Position numbers and translations under genes: made by a program
Part shown: piece by piece, positions 26,553 through 63,399 of the stretch
Numbering within the stretch: the first letter of the stretch is position 1
Layout of the letters: the number at the start of each line of letters is the position of its first letter
Notes under the pieces: generated by a model
Databases searched by the model: none
Seen by the model: only the letters and a program-made list of their open reading frames with translations
What the model was told of the DNA's origin: nothing
Virus record (IMG/VR): IMGVR_UViG_3300032225_000827
Span: 2,070 to 66,069 of that record
Strand: one strand, 5' to 3'
Length of the DNA: 64,000 nt
Source: a virus
Taxonomy: Duplodnaviria; Caudoviricetes

Positions 26553-27875
26553 TTATTTGTACATTTTTGAACCCTTCTCCCAAGTTACTTTCAACCCTCT
26601 TTTTCTATCCTTTTCAATCTGCTCTTTAATCCTATTAGTTATACCAGGAAATTTATTCTCTATAGTTTCAGCATTATAATACTCACTTAATGGATATGAT
26701 TGAGCTTCATCTTTATACTTCTCAACCAGTGTTGGAGTGACTTGAGTGACATCAGCTACATTTGATCCATTAATTTTAATTTGATCCATAGGTATTCCAA
26801 TAACTTGGAACTTTCTTTCATTACCTGTCCAATATGGTTTAACATCAGTAACTACAACAGCATGAGGAGTACCTTGATAATCAGTTAAAGACATACTAAC
26901 TGGATTTTGTCCTTTAGTCCATAATGGTAAATTAAGTAAATCTCCTTTCTGTAAATTCCTTTCTTTTACATCTCCTAATGAAACATCTGCAACTGTGTTT
27001 TCACTGAAAACAGGAGTTGTTGTTTTTGATCCACCACCAGCACGAGGCGCTCTAGGTCTAGCCCTTTGCTCTTTATCCCACAATTCAACCTGATCTCTAA
27101 AATAAGCTATAGCTGCTTCAGGTGTTTTTTCTTTAATATTACCGTCTAAATATAACTTTTCTAATTGATCTGCTTTTCTACTCATAGGTAAATTATCCCA
27201 TTTCAATTTAGCAAATTTATCTAATTCTTCTGGTTGTGTTTCCAATAATGTTCCAGTTTCATTTTCAGGAACTACATAATCCTTTTTCAAATAACCAATC
27301 AAATCAAATTCTTTCAATGGTCTTATAGTAGTAATAGTTTTAAACCCTTCGTTTATACCACCTTTTTCATAAGCATCTGTAACAGATTTTTCGTATGCAT
27401 TTATATCTTCTTGGTTGTAATCTTTACCCAAACCTGCAAGCATTGTCTGCATATTTTTATTATATGTTTCAAATGCTTTTTCGTTTTCACTTTTCATGGT
27501 GTTCAATTCAGCCTTTCGCTTATTCAACTCCATGTTGAAATCTTGATTAATAGGCTTGCCTGAAGCTCTCCACTCTGAAACAAAATCACCAATCTCGTTT
27601 ACTTTCTCATCAAAATTAGACCTCGCAATCTCCCACTTAGGATCATACTCAATACTAGAAATATATTGATTTAACTTCTCTTGGCGTGTTTTCTCATTTA
27701 GCAAATCCTTCTCCTGCTCCAACTTCTTTTGTTGTAGCATATTATTCATATAGTCTTGCGTAACCTCAAAAGGGTTTTGCGCACCCAAATCGTATTCTTG
27801 GGCATATCCTGTACCTTGTCCTGAACTATATTGTTCTGGAGCTAAATCGGGAACTAAAAAATCTAATATCGCCAT
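26553..27875 (-). CDS. putative internal virion protein
   Basis: 440 aa, lying between the pilot-like gene and the giant protein. Confidence 0.5.
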   Translation of the reverse strand: MAILDFLVPDLAPEQYSSGQGTGYAQEYDLGAQNPFEVTQDYMNNMLQQKKLEQEKDLLNEKTRQEKLNQYISSIEYDPKWEIARSNFDEKVNEIGDFVSEWRASGKPINQDFNMELNKRKAELNTMKSENEKAFETYNKNMQTMLAGLGKDYNQEDINAYEKSVTDAYEKGGINEGFKTITTIRPLKEFDLIGYLKKDYVVPENETGTLLETQPEELDKFAKLKWDNLPMSRKADQLEKLYLDGNIKEKTPEAAIAYFRDQVELWDKEQRARPRAPRAGGGSKTTTPVFSENTVADVSLGDVKERNLQKGDLLNLPLWTKGQNPVSMSLTDYQGTPHAVVVTDVKPYWTGNERKFQVIGIPMDQIKINGSNVADVTQVTPTLVEKYKDEAQSYPLSEYYNAETIENKFPGITNRIKEQIEKDRKRGLKVTWEKGSKMYK

Positions 27876-38539: not shown

Positions 38540-39988
38540 TTAATCTCTGTAAAGCAAACCACACTGCTCAATTTTGAACCAATCAAAACCAAAGTGAGTC
38601 AACATATAGATTACATAGTTGTCATTTGGTCCAAGACGGCGAGGAGAAGCAGCTCCATCATCCCAAACCTTCATGAAACGATCTTCACCATCCATTGACT
38701 TGTAGATCAACTCAACTGTGTTACGCAACAAACCAGAAGCATCAGCTTGCTTTTCAGCAGGCATAACAAATCCCATTCCTGCAAATTTGTTGTTTGATCC
38801 AGCTCCGAACAATGTAGGATCGTAAGACAAGTCAAATGATTTAACATTCAAGTTCTTACCATTCAAAGTCAAGGTAGAGAAAGCGAAAGTTGACATCATT
38901 GTTTCAAAATCTTGATTATCACCAAAGATTACTTTAGCAGACTCTTGACGAGTAGAAGCAATGTTAGTATTAGCCAAGAAATTATTATTACCAAGGCTAA
39001 GATCCTGCTCAAAAGCCTGATACAACTCCTTACAGAACAAACCAATCAAATCGTTACCAGTCCAATTAGCTTTCATTCCTGCGATCAAAGTGTAAATTGC
39101 TTCGATATCAAAAGTATCTCCAGTACCAACATCCCAAGGAGTTGAAACAGCACGTTGTTCAAAAGTATCAACCATACCCTGGGCATAAGAACTGTTATGG
39201 AATCCATCAGGATCCATCATGTTACCAGAACTCAAAAATGCACTTGGAGTATAAGCTTTACCCAAAATCATCGCACCAACCAATCCCAACAAGTGACGGT
39301 ATTCGTGTTGTGCAAACAAATGTGAGTGGAAACCTTTCAAAGTCTTGCCATCATCCATCATTACTGGGAAAACTTTATCAGTCAAAGCATCACCAGTAAT
39401 CTTAGCTGAAGTCTTGTGACGTTGCATTGGAGCATAGAAACGAGACCAGTAAGTAGCCTTAGCATTTGGCTGAGCAGTATCTTCACCAAAAGAAGAAGAA
39501 TAGATAGCCAAAACATCGTTTTGAGCAATATCAACTGAAGCACCAGAAATAGAGCTAGCAGAAATTTCATAATATCCGTTAGTTCCTACTTCAGGAGTAA
39601 CAGTATTAACACGCAAACGAACAAAATCACTCATGCGAATCAACAAGTCACCAGGAACAACGTAAGGTTGATCCAAATCTCCAGTAGCTGTACGGATGGT
39701 AACAGTTGTACCAGCAGCAGGCTCATTAGAAACTGTGATTGATTGATTGTAGCGGTCTTCTTCAAAGTGGAAAGCTCCATTTGAGTTATTAACTACACGC
39801 TTAGCACCTTGAGCAATCAAAAGATTCAAGATGTCCAAACCTTGTCCACCAAAACGCTTAAACAATTTAGTAGAAACATCTGGAGGAAGAGCGTCAATAG
39901 ATGACAAAATGTTGTGCTGTCCGTATCCGGTAGCACCTGTGCCATACCCCTGGGGCAAAGCAGCTGGATTGTTATATACAATAGCCAT
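38540..39988 (-). CDS. major capsid protein
   Basis: 482 aa, downstream of portal and scaffold-like genes, strongly biased codon usage, own terminator. Confidence 0.75.
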   Translation of the reverse strand: MAIVYNNPAALPQGYGTGATGYGQHNILSSIDALPPDVSTKLFKRFGGQGLDILNLLIAQGAKRVVNNSNGAFHFEEDRYNQSITVSNEPAAGTTVTIRTATGDLDQPYVVPGDLLIRMSDFVRLRVNTVTPEVGTNGYYEISASSISGASVDIAQNDVLAIYSSSFGEDTAQPNAKATYWSRFYAPMQRHKTSAKITGDALTDKVFPVMMDDGKTLKGFHSHLFAQHEYRHLLGLVGAMILGKAYTPSAFLSSGNMMDPDGFHNSSYAQGMVDTFEQRAVSTPWDVGTGDTFDIEAIYTLIAGMKANWTGNDLIGLFCKELYQAFEQDLSLGNNNFLANTNIASTRQESAKVIFGDNQDFETMMSTFAFSTLTLNGKNLNVKSFDLSYDPTLFGAGSNNKFAGMGFVMPAEKQADASGLLRNTVELIYKSMDGEDRFMKVWDDGAASPRRLGPNDNYVIYMLTHFGFDWFKIEQCGLLYRD

Positions 39989-41228: not shown

Positions 41229-43544
41229 TTATAAGTTCCCCGAAATCTCGACATTCTTCTGCTTCTCAAGAGTACCCTCTTGTGCAAGCTCTGCCATTCT
41301 GTGATTATGCTTAATTTCTTCAAGCAAAGCCTTCTGCTGATACTCAGTCATAATAGAAGCCTGCTTCATTTGCTCAAGAGCCTGTTGTGCAGCTGCCTTA
41401 GCTTCAGCCGCTTGTTGAGCAGACTGAGCTTGTAACTGAGCGTTCATTTGTTGCTGTTGCATGGATTCTTCCATCTTAACCTTACGCTGACGTTCTTCAG
41501 CAATAGTCATGTACCAAGCAGCAAACTCATCGTTATCACTCTCTAATTCCTTCTCAATGAATAAGTAGTCTGCAAGAGTAATTCCAATAACACCATTCTT
41601 TCCAGCTTGCATAGATTGTAACGCAGCTTGAAGAATTTGGCTCTTACGAGTATTAGTTGGAGTTGAAATCAATTTAATTCCAATCTGTTCTAATGTCAAA
41701 TCTTCAAATGAATCTAATGCCGCAATCTTTTCATCACCAAGCAAACTAGAATAATATTTATGAACCTCTTTATCAAACTTCATATTGGTACGAGTCTTTA
41801 GGATAGCCTTTTTAGCGGCTTTCTCCTTCAATCTCATAATAGCCTTCTTCAAAGGAAACAAAGCATGATTAGTAGCATCAACCTCCATCTCACTAACACC
41901 TAAACCTTTTTCGGTAGGAGTAGTAGGCATAGCAGCCATAGTTGGAGTAACACCAGCTAAGTCCATGATTCTATTCATATCATCCTGCCAACAAGTTAAC
42001 CACTCCTCTAATTGAGGACCGATACCACCTGGCAACTCTGCGATAGGCATATTACCACCCTTATTCAAGATGTCAGTCTTTGAATTGATAAACTGATTAC
42101 CAGTCTGTCTACGGATACGAACAATATCCAAAGGAGACATAGAACCCATACCTAAGTCCATATTGGCAAGCAATCCAATATCAACAACGATACCTTTAGG
42201 AGCAGCAGACCATTTAGCAGCTTGTAGCTTGATCCAAGTAAGCATCAATGAGTCCAAGTGCGGCTTCCATCTTTCAACGATAGATTTACCAGGGACACGC
42301 TCAAAGAAATATGAAAGAACTGCATGACCACGAGAATCTCTCATGATATTCTTTTGCAATCCAAAATCATAAACAAACTTAGAACCTAGAATATATTTAC
42401 CTTCATAAACATTCTGAACACAAGTAACATCAGTCCTACGCAATCTTCCGTCTGCATAAGGTTTCTTAGTTACACCAAACTCTTCTTCTTGATAAACAAT
42501 TTTACCTTCTTTAGTTTGACGCTTAGTAAAGTATTCGTAGTCGTTAGCACGATACTCAAAGTGAAGAACATCAACAGAAAAGTCTTCCCAAACATATCTT
42601 CCAGTTACAGGATCCTTTCTATTGAAATTAAAATCTTTATCAGTGTAACCTTGAGTTTCGTAGAATATTCTTGCCAACCCCTCAATTTCCTGAGGAAGAG
42701 CGCCAAGATCCAACAACTTATCTTTAATGTCACCAATACGAACACGTTGTATGTGACCTGCAAATGATGGTTCACCTTCTTCATCTTCATCAATATATGC
42801 AGTGACAAACGATGCAGGATTGATATATCTCATTCTTGTAACCCCATCTGTATCAGCATAAACCTGACTAACAGCGAAGTTAGTTTGAACTAAACCATCA
42901 ATTGTCTTCAATCTAATCTTATCCCAATCACTTACATTAAATGTATGTTTTGCTATATCTTCCATAGCATTTTCAAGAGGTAACTTAAACCCTTGATATT
43001 TATCATACATATCCAACTCCATCTCATCTTGAGGAACCCATGGAAGAACTACTTTTTCTAATCCTAATTCTTCTCTAAGTGGATTCAACAATTTCTCCTC
43101 ATAATACAATCTCCACTTCTTCTTCTGCTTTTCAAACTGAGAAGTTGGGGTAAGGGACTCGCATTTAACTTTAAAGTCAGATGCAGATAGAACAGATTTA
43201 ATTACAGCAATATACTTTGGGGCAGGACTTACAATCTCGTAATTGACATTAGTATATGCCTTACGAGCATATTGAGTCATTCTGTTAACCGGAGAGTTCT
43301 TATCATTCTGCACACCCAAAAACCAGTCACGATATGGAGCAGAGCTTTGCCTTCCCTCACCATAGTCAGTCATCATCTGAAACCATCCAGTAGCCGTCTG
43401 ACCATACAATGTTCTTCCGTTATACCAACGAGAATAGATTGCTTGAGCTACCTGTGTAATGTAACTCAATGTGTTTTTCTCTTCCTTAGGAATCCTGTCA
43501 GAAGGGAATGAGATAATTGGCGTAAACTTCAACATCAAATGCAA
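41229..43544 (-). CDS. portal protein
   Basis: 771 aa directly after the terminase, with the Gln/Ala-rich C-terminal coiled coil typical of podoviral portals. Likely start ATG 43535. Confidence 0.8.
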   Translation of the reverse strand: MHLMLKFTPIISFPSDRIPKEEKNTLSYITQVAQAIYSRWYNGRTLYGQTATGWFQMMTDYGEGRQSSAPYRDWFLGVQNDKNSPVNRMTQYARKAYTNVNYEIVSPAPKYIAVIKSVLSASDFKVKCESLTPTSQFEKQKKKWRLYYEEKLLNPLREELGLEKVVLPWVPQDEMELDMYDKYQGFKLPLENAMEDIAKHTFNVSDWDKIRLKTIDGLVQTNFAVSQVYADTDGVTRMRYINPASFVTAYIDEDEEGEPSFAGHIQRVRIGDIKDKLLDLGALPQEIEGLARIFYETQGYTDKDFNFNRKDPVTGRYVWEDFSVDVLHFEYRANDYEYFTKRQTKEGKIVYQEEEFGVTKKPYADGRLRRTDVTCVQNVYEGKYILGSKFVYDFGLQKNIMRDSRGHAVLSYFFERVPGKSIVERWKPHLDSLMLTWIKLQAAKWSAAPKGIVVDIGLLANMDLGMGSMSPLDIVRIRRQTGNQFINSKTDILNKGGNMPIAELPGGIGPQLEEWLTCWQDDMNRIMDLAGVTPTMAAMPTTPTEKGLGVSEMEVDATNHALFPLKKAIMRLKEKAAKKAILKTRTNMKFDKEVHKYYSSLLGDEKIAALDSFEDLTLEQIGIKLISTPTNTRKSQILQAALQSMQAGKNGVIGITLADYLFIEKELESDNDEFAAWYMTIAEERQRKVKMEESMQQQQMNAQLQAQSAQQAAEAKAAAQQALEQMKQASIMTEYQQKALLEEIKHNHRMAELAQEGTLEKQKNVEISGNL

Positions 43545-51690: not shown

Positions 51691-53441
51691 CCGAAAGAAT
51701 AGTAAACCTACAAACGAGAAGAGAGTTCATCATCGACGTCAAGAACATCAACGGAGAAAATGCTATGCCATGTCCCGAATGTTCAGGGGATCGTAAAAAG
51801 AAGTCAGCTAAGTCATTCAGCTGGGATGGACAGAAAGGAATCGGGAACTGCCTACACTGCGGATCAAGGTTCGGTAAAAAACTAGATGGGGCATACAAGC
51901 CATCAGAAAACCAAAAGCCGATATACTCTCGCCCCGAGTGGAGAAACATCACAGACCTTGAAGACGATGTGCTAAAGTTCTTCACTGACCGAGGAATATC
52001 CCAGCGTGTAGTGAACCAAGCCAAGATTTCACAAGGGCGCACATTCTTCCCCCAAATTGAGAAGGAGGCCAAGTGCATTGAGTTCAACTACTTCCGTGAC
52101 ACGGAACTAATCAACGTGAAGTACCGTGGACCTAAGAAGTCCTTCAAACTCTATAAGGATGCCGAGCTGATATTCTATAACCTAGACAGCATGAAGGGTA
52201 TGGACTACGTTATCATCACCGAGGGAGAGATGGATGCGCTGTCCTACATGGAGGTTGGGTTCGACTCAGTTATATCCGTACCAAACGGAGCCACTAAGTC
52301 CGTAAGCCAAAAGCTTCTATACCTTGACAACTGCATAGACCTATTCGATGACATCCAAACCATCTATATCGCAACCGATGATGATGAGCCTGGGCGTGTG
52401 CTTCAGGAAGAGCTTGCTCGTAGGTTAGGTAAATACAGATGCAAAAAAGTAAGTTATTTTAGTCATAAAGACGCAAATGAGCTGTTAATGTATAATAAAC
52501 TATACTTAACGGACACGATTACAAAGTCTGAAGAGTACCCAATAGAAGGGGTAATTACTGTCGATAACTTATCCGATGACATCTGGAGACTGAAGCGTGA
52601 AGGGTTAAAGCCTGCTTGCGACATATCCATCCCATCATTCAACAGGCTACTCACATTTGAGCCAGGCTACCTAACCGTAGTGACCGGTATCCCCAACCAC
52701 GGAAAGTCAGAGTTCCTCGACCAAATCATGGTGGACCTTTCTACCAAGCACGGATGGAGGTTCGGAATATTCTCACCCGAGAACTACCCACTTCAACTCC
52801 ACTTCTCCAAGATCGCTAGCAAACTAATAGGTGCTAGGTTCAACGATATGCCCGACTTTAACATTGTGCAATCCATGGAGTACTATCGAGACAACTTCTT
52901 CTACATCGTCCCCAAGGAAGACAACAGCGTAGATAGTATCCTAGCCCACGCAGAGCAACTCGTCAAGAGATACGGAATCAACGGACTAATCATTGACGCT
53001 TGGAATAAGCTCGACCATGACTACTCCTCAAACGAGACAACCTACATCGGGAAGCAACTAGACCAAATAATAAATTTTGCTCATAAGTTCGGAGTACATA
53101 TCTTTGTGGTCGCTCACCCTACAAAAATGCAAAGAGAGAAAGGCACAGGACCATACCTAGTCCCCACGCTATATGACATGGCTGGCTCTGCTCACTTCTT
53201 CAACAAGTCGCATAACGGTATCTCAGTCTACCGACATTTCTTCGAGGATGGAACCTCATCCCCTGAAGTATTCGTCCAAAAGGTTAAATTCAAACATTGG
53301 GGTATGCAAGGGAGCGTCCCACTACAATATGACCTTGACTCAGGAAGGTTCTACCAACCTGGATTCCTACAACAAGGTAGCGTTATAGGGAACAAGCCAA
53401 TAGAGCAATTAGAAATTAATAACGAAGAAGCCCCATTCTAA
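51687..53441 (+). CDS. bifunctional primase-helicase (T7 gp4/Twinkle-like)
   Basis: Zn finger CPEC...CLHC, TOPRIM IITEGEMDALS and ATDDDEPG, Walker A TGIPNHGKS, Walker B IIDAWN. ATG 51687 overlaps the upstream TGA. Confidence 0.9.
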   Translation: MTERIVNLQTRREFIIDVKNINGENAMPCPECSGDRKKKSAKSFSWDGQKGIGNCLHCGSRFGKKLDGAYKPSENQKPIYSRPEWRNITDLEDDVLKFFTDRGISQRVVNQAKISQGRTFFPQIEKEAKCIEFNYFRDTELINVKYRGPKKSFKLYKDAELIFYNLDSMKGMDYVIITEGEMDALSYMEVGFDSVISVPNGATKSVSQKLLYLDNCIDLFDDIQTIYIATDDDEPGRVLQEELARRLGKYRCKKVSYFSHKDANELLMYNKLYLTDTITKSEEYPIEGVITVDNLSDDIWRLKREGLKPACDISIPSFNRLLTFEPGYLTVVTGIPNHGKSEFLDQIMVDLSTKHGWRFGIFSPENYPLQLHFSKIASKLIGARFNDMPDFNIVQSMEYYRDNFFYIVPKEDNSVDSILAHAEQLVKRYGINGLIIDAWNKLDHDYSSNETTYIGKQLDQIINFAHKFGVHIFVVAHPTKMQREKGTGPYLVPTLYDMAGSAHFFNKSHNGISVYRHFFEDGTSSPEVFVQKVKFKHWGMQGSVPLQYDLDSGRFYQPGFLQQGSVIGNKPIEQLEINNEEAPF

Positions 53442-53959
53442 TGAAATACACTAGAATAGAAAAACTCCTTGTACACGTTAAGCCCTATGAAAAGGCAGCC
53501 TTCGTGTCAACCCTAATCGAAACTCTCGGAATGGAACATAAGCTATCCGAGGAACTATTCGACTACATGAGCAAGTATCCATCCATAACCCGATGGAGAG
53601 AGAACCCACAAGAGTTCATGACCAAGGTATTCAACGCCTGCTGCCAAGAGTACGGAGTAACTCAAAAGGACGTAATGAAAGGTAAGCGTACATCTAACCA
53701 CGTTGAATCCAAAAGAGTATGGATGTTTATTTGCGAAGGGGTTATGTCTAGCGACTTTGAACTCATAGCCTCATTTATCAAGATGGATAAGTCCTCCATC
53801 AAGTACCATATAGCCAAGACCAGAAGCTTCATCGAAACCAACAAGAAGTACTTCGATAAGGTTAAGTCAATAGTAGAAGCATTAAACCAAGAAGGGCTAC
53901 ACGAGATACCAGAGTTCTTCATAAAGGAAATGAACTACATTAAAAACAAAAGGAGGTAG
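53441..53959 (+). CDS. protein with a DnaA C-terminal-like HTH
   Basis: CCQEYGVTQKDVMKGKRTSNHVESKRVWM...IASFIKMDKSSIKY resembles DnaA domain IV. Confidence 0.6.
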   Translation: MKYTRIEKLLVHVKPYEKAAFVSTLIETLGMEHKLSEELFDYMSKYPSITRWRENPQEFMTKVFNACCQEYGVTQKDVMKGKRTSNHVESKRVWMFICEGVMSSDFELIASFIKMDKSSIKYHIAKTRSFIETNKKYFDKVKSIVEALNQEGLHEIPEFFIKEMNYIKNKRR

Positions 53960-53998
53960 CGAACCAAAGGTTCTTAGTAAACCTACCCAGCAAATTAG

Positions 53999-54025
53999 GA
54001 GGGTTATTTTAAGCCCTCTTTTTTT
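53999..54025 (+). terminator. intrinsic terminator
   Basis: GAGGGTT...GCCCTC hairpin followed by a T run. Confidence 0.75.
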
Positions 54026-54290
54026 GCGCCTATAATTCCTGTCTTGCACCCATAATTCTCGTAGAATCAACTTTTATCGTTCAAGCTATACCAATATATC
54101 GGTCAGGCTATTTAAAGGGGTGAAATTGGAAAAGAGGGGAACATAGTATGGAGGGGGTTTACTATACACATGATACCATGGGGTGCTGTCCGGAACCGAA
54201 TTTTGCGGAAGGGGTGGGTCAAGATTCCGATTCCATTCCGATAGAAATGTTAAAAGATACTGAAAGCGCCTGATTGGTTTGCGTCATAAA

Positions 54291-54687
54291 GTTGCATTAT
54301 ATTACAACCTAACAAATCGCAAGGAGTTGTATCATAGTGCAACATATCATCACTCCAATGTTGTATTAAATTGCAACGGATTGTCCCTATAAAGTTGTCA
54401 TATAATACAAGTGTAATAGATATGTAATACATATGTATGTTGTATTAAAGTACAATGATTAGGTTGTGTTAAAGTACAATAACACATTGCATTTGTTGTA
54501 ATAAAGTACAACCTATTCCGCATCAGGTTTCTGACAGCTGTGGGATAAAAAGGTGCGTGACAGGACGCAACATTGTTAAAATATGTTAAAATTGTAAAAG
54601 CTATTGATTTTCACCTATACGCGCGTGCATGGGATTCCTTTACCACAAAAAGCGATTGCATTTACGCAGGTTGTTATATAGTACAAC
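54291..54687. repeat. seven 18-bp imperfect palindromes (GTTGY-n-RCAAY)
   Basis: Copies at 54291, 54326, 54360, 54439, 54463, 54495 and 54670. Confidence 0.8.
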
Positions 54688-54820
54688 AAAGGGGTAAGCC
54701 CAATCAGGTTATTTTCACCCTATAAAGCTAAAAATGATCGATTCCCCTAAAAATATTTGCAATTTTATTTTACTGATATTCAATTAGTTAGGATCATTTT
54801 AACATCTGTTAACAATTTTA

Positions 54821-54854
54821 TTTGTCGATAATCAAAAAAGTGGTTGTAGGTTTG
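54821..54854 (+). promoter_or_regulatory. early promoter (TTTG ... TAGGTTTG)
   Basis: TTTG at 54821-24 and TAGGTTTG at 54847-54. It is the TAnnTTTG box I found closest upstream of the early gene run. Confidence 0.55.
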
Positions 54855-55274
54855 CCCTCGTCAACGGACAACGAAAGTGGAGTTAAGGTTTAAGTTACCC
54901 ACGCTAGATACAAGAAGTAGTGAATACTTTAGTTCCTCGCAAAAACAGCCTACCGATTTATTGCTCCTGAGTATCGGTATAAAAATCAAACAGGATAAGA
55001 CAAAGCGTAAGCAATGTACGAGAGTCAGCTCGCAGATGTGGTAAAAATGCCACGGGTGGTTAACTAGGATAAGTTAGATTCCTACACCTAAACTGACCTG
55101 AGCCTGCCAAATAGGTAGGGAGATAATAGGACGAGTCTTGGGACTATATGCGGTAATGTGTTTATACACTAGCAGATGAGTACAGCGTCCTGAAATTAAG
55201 TGAAAGATAGTTTTACTTACAACAAAACAAAGTAGCTGACCTAGAGTTATGTCTAGGCGTTAAACAATAAAGCA

Positions 55275-55328
55275 GGTTAACTGATGAGAGTTAGTTACTC
55301 GAAACGCTAGAACGCTAGCGTATTAACC
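55275..55328 (+). ncRNA. type I hammerhead ribozyme HH1
   Basis: GGTTAA-CTGATGA-GAGT(tagtt)ACTC-GAAA-CGCTAG(aacg)CTAGCG-TA-TTAACC. Predicted cut after A55322 (GUA). Confidence 0.95.
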
Positions 55329-55346
55329 AATTAAAACAAAAATAAA

Positions 55347-55556
55347 ATGAAAGCAATCATAAACACACACATTTTAGACACAAGGTTTAACACAACTTAT
55401 ATAATCACATCTGTAACTGACAAGAGGGTCAATTTAGATGAGATTGGATGTAAATACACTACTTCAACAGGTAGAAGTTCATCTAAGTTTTATGTAGGTC
55501 ATAGCAGTTTTGAAAACAATATTGAGTCAGGAGTGTGGCGAGTAGTAAAAGGTTAA
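55347..55556 (+). CDS. hypothetical early protein
   Basis: 69 aa, bounded by HH1 and HH2; its stop codon lies in stem I of HH2. Confidence 0.7.
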   Translation: MKAIINTHILDTRFNTTYIITSVTDKRVNLDEIGCKYTTSTGRSSSKFYVGHSSFENNIESGVWRVVKG

Positions 55557-55606
55557 CTGACGAGGTCTGAATGACCGAAACAAGGGCGCAAGTCCTTGTC
55601 TTAACC
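55551..55606 (+). ncRNA. type I hammerhead ribozyme HH2
   Basis: GGTTAA-CTGACGA-GGTC(tgaat)GACC-GAAA-CAAGGGC(gcaa)GTCCTTG-TC-TTAACC. Predicted cut after C55600 (GUC). Confidence 0.95.
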
Positions 55607-55622
55607 ATTAAAAAAAACAATT

Positions 55623-55802
55623 ATGAAACAAGGTATCACAATTTTATTGATTGCATCAGCATTTTTCTTTGTCCTAGGTATTGGAATCTTAGTAACGCAT
55701 GACAGCAAGCAAGACATCAACTTTGCAACATTTGTACTCATCATGGACCTGCTGTTCCTAGGGTCGGCAATGTACTTACAAATCTCGGAGGATAGAAAAT
55801 GA
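55623..55802 (+). CDS. small 2-TM membrane protein (59 aa)
   Basis: Read from the sequence: MKQGITILLIASAFFFVLGIGILVTHDSKQDINFATFVLIMDLLFLGSAMYLQISEDRK. First ORF after HH2. Confidence 0.7.
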   Translation: MKQGITILLIASAFFFVLGIGILVTHDSKQDINFATFVLIMDLLFLGSAMYLQISEDRK

Positions 55803-55957
55803 AGTCACTAATTGTATTTAATAGCAACAAGTCTTGGGCTAGCAAATTTCAGGTTGTCAAGACCTTTGCAAATGAACAGCACGAAGACAACTACATAGCA
55901 ATGATGAAACGTAAAGGGTTCACCTTGGATGAGGTATATAATTTAGAAACCAAATAA
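55799..55957 (+). CDS. small hypothetical protein (52 aa)
   Basis: MKSLIVFNSNKSWASKFQ...; ATGA overlap with the upstream gene. Confidence 0.6.
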   Translation: MKSLIVFNSNKSWASKFQVVKTFANEQHEDNYIAMMKRKGFTLDEVYNLETK

Positions 55958-55968
55958 AAACAAGTAAT

Positions 55969-56337
55969 ATGAAAACAAATCACGCAACATTGAACATCGG
56001 GTTGAACAACAATCCGTTCACAGCAAAACAAATCAGGAATCATTTTTATGACTTCTTCTCTAGTCACATCGTGGAAATGAGGGAGGCTCTTGGTGAGTAT
56101 GAAGGTCACGATGAACCAACCTTGGTAGTCAAGGTGAGTAAATTCTCGGGAGATGACCATGCATGGATGACTATAGTGCGAACAATGAATGTATTGTATG
56201 GTCAAGATTGCATCGCTCTCAGGTTGGTTGAAATTGATACTAACGGCTTCCAAAGTGTTACTGAAGGATTGGTATACAATAGTGACTTTGAAGGTGAGAA
56301 GTACAGCTTTGACTCAAAGTACTTCATTGAAATGTAA
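55969..56337 (+). CDS. hypothetical early protein
   Basis: 122 aa with an A-rich leader. Its stop is immediately followed by HH3. Confidence 0.7.
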   Translation: MKTNHATLNIGLNNNPFTAKQIRNHFYDFFSSHIVEMREALGEYEGHDEPTLVVKVSKFSGDDHAWMTIVRTMNVLYGQDCIALRLVEIDTNGFQSVTEGLVYNSDFEGEKYSFDSKYFIEM

Positions 56338-56403
56338 GGTTAACTGATGAGACTTCAATAGTCGAAATCTAGGGAGGTATAATAGTCTCCCTAGGTCTTA
56401 ACC
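56338..56403 (+). ncRNA. type I hammerhead ribozyme HH3
   Basis: GGTTAA-CTGATGA-GACT(tcaat)AGTC-GAAA-TCTAGGGAG...CTCCCTAGG-TC-TTAACC. Predicted cut after C56397 (GUC). Confidence 0.95.
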
Positions 56404-56420
56404 AATAAAAAAACAATGTC

Positions 56421-56696
56421 ATGAAAAAAAGAGAGTTAATGGATGAAATCAACAACTTCATCGAGTATTACACGTCAAATGATGCTGAGAGACAACAGAT
56501 GAGTGATGCACTGCTTGACTATATGCTAGACGTACACCAAGAGCCAATCAAAGAAGTGTACTTCAGGCATAATAGAGAGGAAGGTGTTTATGTTGTAAAG
56601 CGAAATGACTTCCCAACATTCAAGATTTATGCGAGTGAGAAGGAGTCTTACATAGAGTCATTCAGTAAGTTAGGGTACACAATTCACGTAGGTTAA
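56421..56696 (+). CDS. hypothetical early protein
   Basis: 91 aa, first ORF after HH3. Confidence 0.65.
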   Translation: MKKRELMDEINNFIEYYTSNDAERQQMSDALLDYMLDVHQEPIKEVYFRHNREEGVYVVKRNDFPTFKIYASEKESYIESFSKLGYTIHVG

Positions 56697-56717
56697 ACAA
56701 GTAAAACAATAAACACA

Positions 56718-56918
56718 ATGAATATCAATTCAATCGTTGCATACGAGTCAGGGGAGCTGAACGATGCAGAAACATTACAACTATTCGCTGACCTCATCAA
56801 ATCGGGTGAGGTTTGGTGGATGCAGGGTCACTACGGCAGGACAGCTGCGGCATTGCTAGATGGTGGGTACATCACAGCGGATGGAGAGGTAACAAATAAG
56901 TTTAACGAAATAAACTAA
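56718..56918 (+). CDS. small conserved phage protein (DUF7417-like)
   Basis: AYESGEL...LFADLIKSG..W..QGHYGRTAAALLDGGYI pattern. Confidence 0.6.
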   Translation: MNINSIVAYESGELNDAETLQLFADLIKSGEVWWMQGHYGRTAAALLDGGYITADGEVTNKFNEIN

Positions 56919-56923
56919 TCAAG

Positions 56924-57181
56924 ATGAAAAAAGTAGGTCACAACATGTTCGTGGATGGAAATAAGTTCTATTCATTTGTAACGCACGTAGCAACCATTGA
57001 GGGTAGCAAGTTAATTGAGTTGGGTAAGTACTCAGCGACAACGTCCAAGCACGTTAGAAAGTTCGCCACAATGAAGGGATTGGAGGTAGTCCCTGCCAAA
57101 AATAAGGTGGAAGATTTTGATATGCTATGGTCGGGGGTTAGACTGAAAGCTGACCATTTAACACACGTTAACAGACGTTAA
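56924..57181 (+). CDS. hypothetical early protein
   Basis: FYSFVTHVATI...GKYSATTSKHV motif, seen in small phage early proteins. Confidence 0.6.
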   Translation: MKKVGHNMFVDGNKFYSFVTHVATIEGSKLIELGKYSATTSKHVRKFATMKGLEVVPAKNKVEDFDMLWSGVRLKADHLTHVNRR

Positions 57182-57216
57182 CATTTACCAAAGAAACAAT
57201 AAACTAATATTGCGAT

Positions 57217-57513
57217 ATGAAACACACAAATGAACTACAAAAATGGGCTAGGGTTGATACCAAGACCGGTAAAGGGATGAACGAGGGATATTGCGTAAAT
57301 GATGGAGACGCATACTTCGAGAATGAATCAGACTTGATTGAGTACCTACGCAATCAGAGTGATGATAAGGGTGAGGGCTTGTCGGATGAATTTATCCTGA
57401 ATGAATCTTTCGATGCTGACGAGTATTACTACACGGAGTGGGACGTGGAAGATGAAATGTATTACTACATTGAACAGCCTGATGGTACATTGCAGGAGGT
57501 TTGGAGAGATTAA
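57217..57513 (+). CDS. acidic hypothetical protein
   Basis: 98 aa; its stop TAA forms part of HH4 stem I. Confidence 0.65.
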   Translation: MKHTNELQKWARVDTKTGKGMNEGYCVNDGDAYFENESDLIEYLRNQSDDKGEGLSDEFILNESFDADEYYYTEWDVEDEMYYYIEQPDGTLQEVWRD

Positions 57514-57584
57514 CTGACGAGTCCTGATTGGACGAAAGGTCTTAAATGTGGGTATCCATAGCCTGATAAGGTGACCTCTTAATC
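57508..57584 (+). ncRNA. type I hammerhead ribozyme HH4
   Basis: GATTAA-CTGACGA-GTCC(tgatt)GGAC-GAAA-GGTC(extended insert)GACC-TC-TTAATC. Predicted cut after C57578 (CUC). Confidence 0.92.
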
Positions 57585-57599
57585 AATAAACAAAACACG

Positions 57600-57872
57600 A
57601 TGAAAGAAGTAATCAAAGCAACCAAGGGAAAGTATTTCTCGGTGGTATTTACAAAGAAGGATGGGTCGGCTCGCAAGATGACGGCTCGTATTGGAGTCCG
57701 TAAAGGAGTGAACGGAAAGGGCATGAACTACAACCCCGATGATAAAGGATTGGTGGTGGTATGGGACTTGCAAAAGCAGGACTATAGGATGGTCAATATT
57801 TCTACTATCATCTCCTTCAAGTGCGGTAAAAAAGTTATCAACAACAGCACCAATCAGGTTGAGTTAGCATAA
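57600..57872 (+). CDS. SH3-fold WYL-like protein
   Basis: FSVVFTKKDGSARKM...VVVWDLQKQDYRMVNISTI matches the WYL_2-type pattern. First ORF after HH4. Confidence 0.65.
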   Translation: MKEVIKATKGKYFSVVFTKKDGSARKMTARIGVRKGVNGKGMNYNPDDKGLVVVWDLQKQDYRMVNISTIISFKCGKKVINNSTNQVELA

Positions 57873-57901
57873 ATTTGTCAAACCAATAAACAATAAACAA
57901 T

Positions 57902-58114
57902 ATGTATTTATTACACAAAAAGGACGGCTCACATACCATAGTTGTGAAGCGAGAGACCCTAGAGTCTGCGGTGACATCGCTCAAAGCTTTTGCAGAGACC
58001 CACAATCTTGAAATGGAGATTGATGGGGACGAGATTAAAGCTACTGACGGCACACGATTCCCTGAGATAATGGGTTGGATAGAGTTGGAACCCTATAAAC
58101 AAGTTGAACTATGA
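57902..58114 (+). CDS. hypothetical protein
   Basis: 70 aa with an A-rich leader. Confidence 0.55.
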   Translation: MYLLHKKDGSHTIVVKRETLESAVTSLKAFAETHNLEMEIDGDEIKATDGTRFPEIMGWIELEPYKQVEL

Positions 58115-58323
58115 ATATCGAAATCAATTTAGTTGAGGCGGCTAGCGAATTAGCGCATGAGCAAACCATCCGTGAGATGCTATTCCACGAGCAGATAGTA
58201 ACCCCTGATGATGTCTATGTCACCCATGAAAATGGAGACACGGCATACACGGAGGATGCTCAGGATACCTTTAATCATTGGTATGACCACTATTATGAAC
58301 TATTAAATAATTTAGCAATATGA
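58111..58323 (+). CDS. acidic hypothetical protein
   Basis: 70 aa with ATGA overlaps. Confidence 0.55.
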   Translation: MNIEINLVEAASELAHEQTIREMLFHEQIVTPDDVYVTHENGDTAYTEDAQDTFNHWYDHYYELLNNLAI

Positions 58324-58622
58324 ATAATTTCAAAGAAGCTGTAAACAGCAACAAGTACTTGGTCGTTGATTTCTATGCGACTTGGTGTGGGCCATGTAAA
58401 GTTGTTGGTCCTATAATCGATGAGTTGAAGGCAGAAAATCAGAACGCTGACCTAGAATTCATGAAGGTTGATGTGGATGAATATCCTGAACTTGCTCAGG
58501 AGTTTCTTATCAGGAACATCCCGACTATTCTATTCATCAAGGATGGAGAGGTAGTGGATAAAAAGATAGGGATGATTAGCAAGGATGTAATTGAAACACA
58601 AATAAAAACAATAACACAATGA
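58320..58622 (+). CDS. trxA: thioredoxin
   Basis: VVDFYATWCGPCK...KVDVDE...IRNIPT. Confidence 0.95.
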   Translation: MNNFKEAVNSNKYLVVDFYATWCGPCKVVGPIIDELKAENQNADLEFMKVDVDEYPELAQEFLIRNIPTILFIKDGEVVDKKIGMISKDVIETQIKTITQ

Positions 58623-58787
58623 ACAATTTAATCGCAATCACCCACGATGGTGAGAAGAAGGTAGTCACAGACTACAAAGCAATCAACAAAGGTTCACGCA
58701 TGAACCCTGAAATGTACCTGAACGAGGTTGAAATTGATGGGTCATGGTATTCAGTGGATGTATTCAAGAACGTAACATTCGAGAGAC

Positions 58788-59069
58788 ATGGAGAATAAAG
58801 TAACAGCGCATAGCTACCTATTCGGTAAAGAAGTAGTTAGGGCATACAATATGTTCAATGACGGCAGGGAGAGGGAAATAATCTCTGTGCTAGATTATCT
58901 ACTGCAGGACAGAAAGGAAGGGGAATATATCTCCAGCGATATGTACAGCGACACCGACATGATACTGGAGGTGGCTCAGGAGTGGGACGGCTGGTATGTC
59001 AGGGTGGAAGACTCCTTCATCGATGACCTGATCAAGTACGAATGGAAACGAAGAAACTTAAATCAATAA
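58788..59069 (+). CDS. hypothetical protein
   Basis: 93-aa ORF in the early run. Confidence 0.55.
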   Translation: MENKVTAHSYLFGKEVVRAYNMFNDGREREIISVLDYLLQDRKEGEYISSDMYSDTDMILEVAQEWDGWYVRVEDSFIDDLIKYEWKRRNLNQ

Positions 59070-59073
59070 AACA

Positions 59074-59358
59074 ATGGAAACTATAGAAATCATGATTCAT
59101 GAGCCTGCTCAATTTCAGAAGGCAGGTAAACATTACAAGTCAGACATACGGATTGCATCTGCTGTACTTACAATGGGGGGAGAATATAGAGCGACTGGAT
59201 ATGTTGAGACGTTAGGGTCTCAAAGTAAGAGTGGGAAGGAGTACAATAGGTTTGGTATCTATGTAAATGGAAACTATGTAACGGCACGAGGTCATTACGA
59301 GAAGGCTGTCGGAAAGTTAATTACTGCAATGTATGCAGAGGGAGGGCGTCATGTATAA
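59074..59358 (+). CDS. hypothetical protein
   Basis: 94-aa ORF with an A-rich leader. Confidence 0.6.
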   Translation: METIEIMIHEPAQFQKAGKHYKSDIRIASAVLTMGGEYRATGYVETLGSQSKSGKEYNRFGIYVNGNYVTARGHYEKAVGKLITAMYAEGGRHV

Positions 59359-59575
59359 TATTCATGTGAAGGAGTACAACTCCAGAAGGAACGAATATGT
59401 CCCGACTCATGTAGAGTGGAGTGTGAACAGCAGTGAGAATATGTTCCCTAAGTTTTTCAAGAAGTGGAAGAGCGAGTACGAGGTGGACAATGGGGACTAT
59501 CAGGTACTGCTGATGGACGAGGATGACGAGAATATAGTCGACTCATTTTTCTGTGACGATATTGACTTCATATGA
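59333..59575 (+). CDS. acidic hypothetical protein
   Basis: 80-aa ORF; start likely the ATG near 59351. Confidence 0.5.
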   Translation: MQREGVMYNIHVKEYNSRRNEYVPTHVEWSVNSSENMFPKFFKKWKSEYEVDNGDYQVLLMDEDDENIVDSFFCDDIDFI

Positions 59576-59805
59576 TGGGAAGGGTCTGGTTAGGTGTAGG
59601 GATTTGGGGGTTTATCCTCAAGTCCTTACTCTCCCTTCCTTTGATGATGGGGTATTCAATAGGGTGTATTATATTAAAAAAGAGATAATGATGAACGAGA
59701 GAATTGAGTTATTAATCGGGAGGTTCATTGCAGTGCTTTTCATAGGGTGTATTGGTTTTTATTTAATATCATCTTTGCTGTCGCCTGCTAGAAAATATTC
59801 TGAGT

Positions 59806-60117
59806 TTGAGCAATGCGTATTGGATTCTCACTCGGAGCAAGAAACACACGAATGTTTTATCAAATACAAATAACATGAGAACAATAAAGCTAACTGAAGA
59901 TGAGGTGAACACGATGTTCAGGCTCATATATCAAACAACATCGGAACTGGATAGACGGCTAGCCGAGACAAGGAAGGAGAGGCACTATTCGGTGGAGAAG
60001 TTTATCATGGACGAGATGAAGGTGCTGGATACCATCGGGAAGAAGATGATGCACGCTCACCCACCATTCGATGTGAATAGAAATTCGGAGGAGGTTCACG
60101 ATGATTCTGCGTACTAA
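59806..60117 (+). CDS. hypothetical helical protein
   Basis: Likely start MRTIKLTEDE near 59875. Confidence 0.5.
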   Translation: MSNAYWILTRSKKHTNVLSNTNNMRTIKLTEDEVNTMFRLIYQTTSELDRRLAETRKERHYSVEKFIMDEMKVLDTIGKKMMHAHPPFDVNRNSEEVHDDSAY

Positions 60118-60572: not shown

Positions 60573-61088
60573 ATGAATAACGAAAAACAAATTGAAGCTA
60601 TTAAAAGAGCTGTAGTTGATGAGGTAAATTGCTTCATCTTGGATGACAAAAAAATAACTTGGAAGGATGTAACTGCTAGGTCAAAAAAGGCTGCCTATGT
60701 GAAGGTCAGGGCAATGGTTTGTGTGTTGCTTAAAGACATCCTCAACATGAAGGTTGTTGACATCGGGAAGGAAATTAAGAGAGACCATAGCAACGTGACC
60801 TACATGATTAACACGGTCCACATCACGCTGTACAATTCCGAGAAGGTCTATCGTCAGGTATATGATAACGTGATAAGTAAGTACTTGGGTATGCAGGCTG
60901 GCACGGAGTTCATCACCTATGATGTTAGGAGTTACATCAAGCGAGTGATAGAGATGGAAAAGCAACTGAACGAGATGAAGACTGAACTGATCAACTTATT
61001 GTCTGGAGAACATGACAAGGATAAGGAGCAGATTAAGGTCCAGAAGTATCGCCTGCTCAAGGAGTTAGCAAAATTGGAGATGGAGTAG
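60573..61088 (+). CDS. DnaA C-terminal-like HTH protein
   Basis: VKVRAMVCVLLKDILNMKVVDIGKEIKRDHSNVTY closely follows DnaA domain IV (R..AMYL...SL..IG..F.RDHTTV). Confidence 0.75.
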   Translation: MNNEKQIEAIKRAVVDEVNCFILDDKKITWKDVTARSKKAAYVKVRAMVCVLLKDILNMKVVDIGKEIKRDHSNVTYMINTVHITLYNSEKVYRQVYDNVISKYLGMQAGTEFITYDVRSYIKRVIEMEKQLNEMKTELINLLSGEHDKDKEQIKVQKYRLLKELAKLEME

Positions 61089-62773: not shown

Positions 62774-63160
62774 ATGAAATATACTATTGAATTATCTGAA
62801 GATCAAATGCGATTGATTGCGGACTGTCTTGATGACATTGGCAGATTTGCAGCAGGTCAATGGAGTTTAAGAACTACTATTGAAGAGATGGTAACAGGAC
62901 TTCCATTTGAAGAGCAAATAAGTAGGCGTAATAATGCTGAAGAATATTTGAAATTAGCTAAACGAGTCTTATTACCAGACTTTGCAGACAATCAAAGCCA
63001 TGGATATAATAGTACAGAGTTTATTGGTAATATTTATCAGATAAGTCGAACTATTCTGCATCAATTAGCAATAGATCATAATTGGGATAATGTGTATTCA
63101 TCTCCTGCATTACCATCTGGTACAATGGGGACAATTAAGATTAACAAAGTAAAAGAGTAA
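62774..63160 (+). CDS. hypothetical protein
   Basis: 128-aa ORF. Confidence 0.65.
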   Translation: MKYTIELSEDQMRLIADCLDDIGRFAAGQWSLRTTIEEMVTGLPFEEQISRRNNAEEYLKLAKRVLLPDFADNQSHGYNSTEFIGNIYQISRTILHQLAIDHNWDNVYSSPALPSGTMGTIKINKVKE

Positions 63161-63162
63161 TT

Positions 63163-63399
63163 ATGAGTAAACAAACAGCGGTTATATGGTTTAATCAACA
63201 ACTAGTCGAAAGACAAAATGGTAATGGAGATAGAAGAAGTTGGGATGAAATACTACGAGAGGCATTAGTAATTGAACGTGAGCAGATTATTCAAGCACAT
63301 GGTAATAAAATGAGACAAGATATTGAAAATAATATAGATGTCTATTTCATAACAACAGGTCAACAATACTACAACGAAACATACGGAGGTGACAAATGA
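63163..63399 (+). CDS. small conserved phage protein
   Basis: MSKQTAVIWF...EREQIIQAH...QQYYNETYGG pattern. Confidence 0.6.
   Translation: MSKQTAVIWFNQQLVERQNGNGDRRSWDEILREALVIEREQIIQAHGNKMRQDIENNIDVYFITTGQQYYNETYGGDK

Follow-up and report, generated by a model that had tools for sequence, protein, structure and literature searches.

The window analysed here, a stretch of 64,000 nucleotides (nt) of the IMG/VR virus record IMGVR_UViG_3300032225_000827 (Duplodnaviria; Caudoviricetes; positions 2,070 to 66,069), carries four type I hammerhead ribozyme motifs on its + strand, between positions 55275 and 57584. The explanation that we favour, and consider probable, is that these elements act in cis within one polycistronic transcript, synthesised by the host RNA polymerase in what is probably a phage of Bacteroidota, and cut it into defined pieces. 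Self-cleavage of the four motifs is highly likely, judging from their sequence; that cleavage takes place in vivo, that a single transcript is involved and that the defined ends bring a benefit, through differential stability or insulated translation, is what we infer. The motifs were located with a structural descriptor and scored with R1, a covariance model built from A1, a 48-member alignment of the wider phage class to which they belong (copies 1 and 2 were part of the training set, copies 3 and 4 stood outside it):

55275–55328, + strand: hammerhead 1, type I; cut after A55322 (GUA triplet); descriptor match, R1 score 67.1 bits
55551–55606, + strand: hammerhead 2, type I; cut after C55600 (GUC); descriptor match, R1 score 65.2 bits
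56338–56403, + strand: hammerhead 3, type I; cut after C56397 (GUC); descriptor match, R1 score 60.4 bits
57508–57584, + strand: hammerhead 4, type I; cut after C57578 (CUC); descriptor match, R1 score 55.1 bits

All four copies exhibit type I topology, in which stem I is open and stems II and III are closed by loops, and share one order of elements: the 5' strand of stem I, the core, the stem II hairpin, GAAA, the stem III hairpin, UH and the 3' strand of stem I. Stem I comprises 6 base pairs (bp) throughout, GGUUAA/UUAACC in copies 1–3 and GAUUAA/UUAAUC in copy 4, which differs from the others by one compensated change from G-C to A-U. In every copy a CUGA(U/C)GA core leads into a 4-bp stem II with a 5-nt loop, followed by GAAA, and stem III spans 7, 8, 12 and 5 bp in copies 1 to 4, respectively. 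The catalytic core is canonical in each case (C3 U4 G5 A6 N7 G8 A9 G12 A13 A14 A15.1 U16.1), the core-adjacent pairs 1.1-2.1, 10.1-11.1 and 15.1-16.1 are intact as A-U, G-C and A-U, and H17, which is never G, is A in copy 1 and C in copies 2, 3 and 4. An earlier note on this DNA had described four sense-strand hammerheads, and the descriptor scan and the sequence bear out its coordinates, stems, cores and cut sites in full.

To satisfy the descriptor, a site needed minimum lengths of 5 bp for stem I and 3 bp for stems II and III, the sequences CUGANGA and GAAA flanking stem II, the A15.1-U16.1 pair as closure of stem III, and an H17 other than G. Applied to both strands of the 64-kb window, the descriptor matched these four sites only, and a single match arose in 300 first-order Markov shuffles of the window. 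The whole virus record (66,069 bp, classed as complete, with direct terminal repeats) contains the four hammerhead copies and no fifth. When R1 was run on the window with filters off, the four copies received E-values of 1e-11 to 1e-14, and the runner-up reached 18.1 bits. The minimum-free-energy folds of copies 2, 3 and 4, each taken alone, correspond to the exact three-way hammerhead junction, and that of copy 1 does so once 30-nt flanks are included; the stem I duplexes have energies of about -4 and -2 kcal/mol. A trans-cleavage design was considered and rejected, as substrate-like and enzyme-like half sites were found at the four ribozymes only and elsewhere at chance level.

The wider class was defined by two scans of pattern type. 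The first, carried out on IMG/VR with the pattern TTAA, CUGAYGAG, 9–15 nt and CGAAA, which is silent on stems II and III and on the 3' strand of stem I, matched at least 120 stretches; several stretches among the matches listed hold 3–5 clustered copies, and a full hammerhead fold could be drawn for 129 of the 153 matches listed, most failures being hammerheads with one bulge. The second scan left stem I free and prescribed the core, a UNANU-looped stem II of 4 bp, and CGAAAC. Of the 183 unique sites that it returned, 176 give the complete fold, 174 of them with a stem I of precisely 6 bp. Stem I sequences vary and covary across the sites. GGUUAA is the commonest (56 of 183), and a role for GGUUAA/UUAACC as a signal conserved across the class was discarded, many other 6-bp stem I sequences having appeared once stem I was left unfixed. 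The constants of stem I in the class are only its length, its closing G-C pair and its flanking As: among the 100 sites of the second scan that were new relative to the first, the closing G-C pair is present in 94%, an unpaired A before stem I in 99% and one after it in 99%. Over the class, A at -1 and A at +1 are conserved at 97–99%, and the U, A and U of the UNANU loop at 97%, 88% and 97%. The conserved flanking As and the UNANU loop suggest a tertiary contact between stem I and loop II, and any such contact would probably use these residues.

The helices of the class covary around a constant core. In the 48-sequence alignment, which was pre-selected for pairing, 98.4% of the cells pair, compared with 26–40% when partners are slid by 1–3 columns, and 14 of the 17 pairs change on both sides. 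Across more than 300 class sites the core is invariant and the helices covary, with stems II and III diverging freely. Arrays larger than the present one occur in other contigs, with 5 to 8 copies each (seven in 5 kb in L078, eight in 4 kb in L182).

Closer relatives of the phage allowed individual copies to be compared:

L129: primase-helicase identity 96%; carries copies 2, 3 and 4
L130: primase-helicase identity 79%; carries copies 1 and 3
L138: primase-helicase identity 85%; carries one copy, like copy 4

Other relatives have no copy in the DNA examined. The ortholog of copy 1 in L130 differs by two compensatory pair changes in stem III, and that of copy 2 in L129 by two compensatory pair changes in stem II. 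Copy 3 is identical in L129, and in L130 its stems II and III differ yet still pair. Copy 4 has orthologs in L129 and L138, with an A-U to G-C change in stem I of L138. The proposal that selection acts on structure is therefore upheld: in stems I, II and III alike, orthologs have changed on both strands and still pair. The leader at 54861–55322 together with hammerhead 1 is about 71% conserved in L130. The open reading frames (ORFs) around the array are mosaic among the relatives, and the hammerheads form islands of similarity between them. A branched insert of 31 nt lies in stem III of copy 4 (57538–57577) and folds into two small hairpins; it is retained in L129, and L138, compared by eye, seemingly has both hairpins with some pairs changed.

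The position of the ribozymes relative to genes is equally regular. At 67% of 155 class sites an ATG opening an ORF of at least 40 amino acids (aa) lies 15–26 nt past the cut, against 3% of random positions, and at 83% of them the end of an upstream ORF falls in the interval from -12 to +10 around the motif start (random positions: 6%). Both features occur together at 108 of 144 interior sites (75%). As the motif start GGTTAACTGA provides TAA and TGA in two frames, overlap with a stop codon is frequent. The sites having only one of the features do not discriminate between a function at the 5' end and one at the 3' end, since 18 have the downstream ATG only and 16 the upstream ORF end only. The leaders between cut and ATG consist of 57% A and 6% G across the class, with a 4-mer resembling a Shine-Dalgarno sequence in 30 of 138.

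The four copies in the window follow the same plan, and the segments that they delimit are as follows:

54861–55322, + strand: putative non-coding leader with no convincing ORF, which cut 1 would set free; its 5' end is placed from the promoter match described below
55347–55556, + strand: segment 1, one ORF of 69 aa; ATG 24 nt after cut 1; in agreement with an independent gene call
55623–56337, + strand: segment 2, ORFs of 59, 52 and 122 aa; first ATG 22 nt after cut 2
56421–57513, + strand: segment 3, ORFs of 91, 66 (DUF7417), 85 (DUF8033, precomputed hits) and 98 aa; first ATG 23 nt after cut 3
57600–57872, + strand: first ORF past hammerhead 4, 90 aa, with a WYL_2 Sm-like domain; ATG 21 nt after cut 4

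Hammerhead 1 lies between an ORF-poor leader of about 460 nt and the first small ORF. The TAA within stem I of hammerhead 2 (55554–55556) is the stop codon of the ORF at 55347–55556, hammerhead 3 begins one base past the stop codon of the ORF at 55969–56337, and the TAA within stem I of hammerhead 4 (57511–57513) is the stop codon of the ORF at 57217–57513. Several expectations of the earlier note can be judged at this point. Its cut-to-ATG range of 21–24 nt agrees with the distances found (24, 22, 23 and 21 nt), its division into a leader followed by units of one, three and four ORFs is correct by both the ORF list and the independent gene call, and a survey of the class, of the kind that it proposed for related phages, shows the same gene-boundary placement at most of the 155 sites. 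Its suggestion that the small ORFs encode host-takeover proteins found no support, as Pfam and PHROGs return only DUF7417, WYL_2 and families of unknown function; in these databases the ORF of segment 1 has no family match and those of segment 2 have none above threshold.

Some further observations concern the same run of small genes. A 100-aa ORF at 58320–58622 has thioredoxin-family matches in a precomputed Pfam table for an identical contig. Two ribozyme-free junctions, at 56691–56720 and 63138–63165, open with a stem-I-like (A)GRTTAA, immediately after which come about 20 nt of A-rich leader and an ATG. Lost hammerheads may have left these junctions behind as scars, or they may simply be the usual combination of stop codon and leader; the weak R1 match at 63138 lacks a core. 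The DUF7417 gene follows the junction at 56691–56720 here and stands directly after a hammerhead in L138. A variant of the phage in sample ERZ21844627 (a contig of 4252 bases) has an extra 75-aa gene between the 91-aa and DUF7417 ORFs, which falls within segment 3, between hammerheads 3 and 4.

Signals for the start and end of transcription were sought around the array, and two features on the same strand are relevant:

53997–54020, + strand: terminator-like hairpin with a T run, which would end the upstream primase-helicase unit
54821–54854, + strand: candidate Bacteroidota-type promoter (TTTG, 22 nt, TAGGTTTG), a consensus match only

Between 53106 and 57870 the + strand has no TAnnTTTG box other than that of the promoter match, and the pattern is weakly enriched overall (8 seen, 3.7 expected). 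No terminator-like sites were found between the ribozymes. The single-transcript layout proposed earlier fits these consensus matches, with a terminator-like hairpin upstream, one promoter match, and neither a box nor a terminator between the copies; the arrangement fits one transcript that would start near 54861 and be cut by the four ribozymes. Upstream of the array lie a primase-helicase gene, a gene for a DnaA-C-like protein, the terminator-like hairpin and an ORF-poor gap. This gap (54030–54860) extends from the terminator-like hairpin to the promoter match. A block at 54392–54479 matches L138 on both strands, and is thus palindromic, and is kept in L129; it may be a replication origin, near two DnaA-C-like genes (53441–53959 and 60573–61088).

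The phage appears to be an uncultured, lytic-looking virus of 66 kb whose host is probably a member of Bacteroidota, a probability that stems from the affinity of its primase-helicase and from the distribution of R1 matches. The nearest counterparts of the primase-helicase belong to Riemerella and Flavobacterium phages (34–40% identity). Among representative genomes, Bacteroidota account for most R1 matches on large contigs or chromosomes (Paraflavitalea, Niabella, Agriterribacter and a Sphingobacteriales metagenome-assembled genome), the exception being a contig of 86 kb that binning assigned to Bdellovibrionales; R1 does not recognise the pattern matches seen in Firmicutes genomes. Searches of a phage collection with 54000–60000 (blastn) and with the ORF at 38540–39988 (tblastn) gave no match. 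A Pfam scan of 30 window ORFs, a set without many of the small ones, turned up no gene for an RNA polymerase, an RNA ligase or RNA repair. A cultured carrier of the class does exist: Flavobacterium phage vB_FspP_elemoA_1-9A has one member on its - strand (MT497075.1, 27445–27505; L206:1501–1561), with an R1 score of 50.9 bits, stem I GGCAAA/UUUGUC and an ATG 28 nt past the cut. In its record a 35-aa coding sequence on the opposite strand, phanotate43 (27432–27539), spans the hammerhead and is probably spurious.

From these elements the following mechanism can be proposed. Each motif would fold into the three-way junction during transcription and cut after H17. Because stem I is the open stem, the upstream product would keep nearly the whole ribozyme together with the stop codon, and its 3' end would consist of the stem III hairpin and one nucleotide with a 2',3'-cyclic phosphate. 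The downstream product would begin with a 5'-OH on the 6-nt UUAA(C/U)C, continue through an A-rich leader of 15–18 nt that lacks a Shine-Dalgarno sequence, and reach the ATG. These termini agree with the general chemistry of hammerhead self-cleavage, whose products carry a 5'-OH and a 2',3'-cyclic phosphate, and the UUAA(C/U)C 5' ends and hairpin-closed 3' ends foreseen in the earlier note do follow from the topology of the motifs, provided that they are cleaved. The products should separate, given that a 6-bp A-U-rich stem I is weak, and the cut would then be effectively irreversible. One message would in this way yield a leader RNA, units of one, three and four genes and a remainder, each with defined ends, and the stability and translation of each unit would be uncoupled from neighbouring sequence. 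Synthetic insulators of the RiboJ type offer an engineered counterpart: derived from the ribozyme of a plant satellite RNA, they place a hammerhead ahead of a coding sequence, which thereby acquires a defined 5' end independent of upstream context, and an added hairpin exposes the ribosome-binding site.

Several points weigh against cleavage of one message into defined units. Contigs that carry these genes yield no RNA ends, and stabilisation, insulation and translational effects are not told apart by the present evidence. The contact between stem I and loop II that fast cleavage at physiological Mg2+ needs is a putative one, and a Watson-Crick pseudoknot between loop II and the 12-nt flanks of stem I was rejected, pairing there being no better than in permuted controls (z = -1.8 and -0.3). 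Copy number among close relatives is 3, 2, 1 or none in the DNA examined, and therefore no single copy is essential. Lastly, the curated hammerhead models of Rfam remain below threshold on all four copies.

The last point deserves comment. The search with Rfam hammerhead models that had been suggested earlier was carried out with Rfam 15 on the window and yielded zero matches at gathering scores. RF00163 (Hammerhead_1), whose gathering score is 34 bits, reached at best 24.9, on copy 4 and in an alignment that misplaces stem III; RF03152 (RAGATH-1 hammerhead) reached 27.1 bits on copy 3 and 24.6 bits on copy 2, against 56.3. Ten loci that carry at least 30 class members, recognised as R1 matches, likewise gave no Rfam match at gathering scores. 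As these class-rich loci are also missed, the failure reflects a limit of the curated models, with their very short stem III, and not a defect of the motifs. RF00163 agrees with the phage motifs in topology (stem I open), in the catalytic core and in the lengths of stem I (6 bp) and stem II (4 bp), but its stem III is very short, whereas that of the phage motifs has 5–12 bp and loops of up to 31 nt. RF03152, the best sub-threshold match for copies 2 and 3, likewise has its elements in type I order and combines a long stem III with a short stem I rich in A and U; it differs in an upstream hairpin that is not consistently present in the phage copies, and in a stem II reduced to a single pair where the phage copies have a regular 4-bp helix with a UNANU loop.

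Among the other explanations, the one that survives best places the advantage of cleavage in translation and not mainly in stability: the cut would strip the bulky ribozyme and all RNA preceding it from a short, A-rich leader devoid of a Shine-Dalgarno sequence, and Bacteroidota ribosomes, which initiate at unstructured leaders rich in A, could then load. We regard this as rather unlikely. All four copies stand 21–24 nt ahead of an ATG, copy 1 included even though it has no upstream ORF; the class leaders have the A-rich, G-poor composition given above and seldom contain a Shine-Dalgarno-like 4-mer; the reliably assigned hosts are mostly Bacteroidota; and type I topology leaves just 6 nt of the ribozyme downstream. 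In RNA mycoviruses, moreover, type I hammerheads in 5' untranslated regions are needed for translation initiation, in a eukaryotic setting (PMC13725137). However, sites with only an upstream ORF end are as common as those with only a downstream ATG (16 and 18), so the 5' end shows no asymmetry, most genes of the operon start without a ribozyme, and no bacterial experiment supports the proposal. A stronger version, which we hold to be a little more doubtful still, is that the motifs form a distinct subclass, undetected by Rfam and specialised in Bacteroidota phages for producing short A-rich leaders with a 5'-OH, self-cleavage being required for translation independent of a Shine-Dalgarno sequence. 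If true, the subclass would be a bacterial counterpart of the ribozyme-dependent translation of RNA mycoviruses.

It is also conceivable that the ribozymes persist as passengers, travelling with gene cassettes or serving as recombination sequences with little benefit to expression. Comparison with L129, L130 and L138 lends some substance to this notion, as the hammerheads stay similar where the ORFs around them are unrelated or swapped, and copy number varies among close relatives. Nevertheless, the strict succession of stop codon, motif, about 22 nt and ATG, on the sense strand and at 75% of 144 sites, shows selection at the level of RNA and expression, and stems II and III diverge freely around an intact core; we therefore consider the passenger explanation very improbable.

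Fractionally less probable again is the formation of circular or spliced RNAs, in which the two ends of a released segment would come together as a hammerhead again and be ligated, through reversal of the cleavage or through an RtcB-type ligase. The end chemistry (5'-OH and 2',3'-cyclic phosphate) would be suitable, and stem I is common to copies 1–3 and one compensated pair away in copy 4. A like stem I is, however, a habit of the whole class, as the frequency of GGUUAA (56 of 183) indicates, and other arrays vary it; Perreault et al. sought circular or spliced products of hammerhead arrays and found none (PMC3088659); no RNA ligase turned up in the Pfam scan of 30 window ORFs; and the weak 6-bp stem I disfavours re-ligation. 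Finally, the possibility that the four sites are chance matches, plain hairpins or terminators is almost negligible: scores short of the Rfam gathering levels speak for it, and it is effectively refuted by the shuffles (one match in 300, against four on one strand in 2.3 kb), by the R1 E-values and by an invariant core with covarying helices at more than 300 sites.

Self-cleaving punctuation of a phage message, the explanation that we retain, has precedents. In 2011, several hammerheads were described flanking single genes or short gene blocks in prophages, and the processing of long phage RNAs was proposed (PMC3088659). The same study showed, for three clustered prophage arrays, that transcripts of about 2 kb are cut in vitro at every hammerhead site, and reported in vivo cleavage for one cloned array of Agrobacterium tumefaciens (PMC3088659). 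For the hammerhead of haloviruses HF1/HF2 (HHphage), a mapped transcript 5' end falls within 3 nt of the cut (PMC3088659). A 2019 review still listed the purpose of phage hammerheads as open (PMC6765202). The present array, with four copies in 2.3 kb, resembles those of 2011 in that sense-strand hammerheads flank phage genes or gene blocks. The arrays tested then came from prophages of Clostridium scindens, Azorhizobium caulinodans and Agrobacterium tumefaciens, whereas this one consists of a single tight type I subclass with a fixed cut-to-ATG distance in a probable Bacteroidota phage. A text search of the supplementary text of that paper did not find the subclass sequence, which the alignments of the paper may still contain (PMC3088659).

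Two further systems can be compared with the array. HHphage also lies close to a gene start: in an early polycistronic transcript, it precedes the first start codon by 13 nt. It comes from an archaeal virus, however, occurs there singly and has a variant core dependent on high salt. The mycovirus hammerheads (PMC13725137) are likewise of type I and located just upstream of an ORF, but they belong to RNA genomes in eukaryotic hosts, where translation is cap-independent. Clustered phage hammerheads and the idea of messenger RNA processing have been known since 2011, and the array described here is a clean new example and not a new system. The definition of the subclass, the fixed stop/start geometry and the association with Bacteroidota and with leaders lacking a Shine-Dalgarno sequence are modest additions.

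Two side observations complete the description. The contigs L182 (5.8 kb, binned as Aliivibrio), L189, L200 and L193, all from metagenome-assembled genomes, carry 4–8 class hammerheads within 1–4 kb; these contigs, with labels of Aliivibrio, Gammaproteobacteria and Streptomycetaceae, are probably mis-binned phage fragments. The structural module of the window (7770–49340, - strand) encodes very large proteins, of 2207, 1570 and 1317 aa. Its portal (41229–43544) corresponds to phrog_6547, and nearly all other large ORFs scanned have no match in Pfam or PHROGs, the 2207-aa ORF lying outside the scan.

As regards its significance, the locus constitutes a clean natural test case, in which one candidate promoter is combined with four ribozymes of the same subclass at fixed distances from stop and start codons, and the translation-start rules of the probable host group, Bacteroidota, lead to a prediction that is specific and testable. 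The Rfam models miss an abundant class of which R1 or the descriptor recovers hundreds of copies, and the geometry of the class can be used to correct phage gene calls. Because a cultured Flavobacterium phage, elemoA_1-9A, carries a class member, both the cleavage and the function of these ribozymes are open to direct test.

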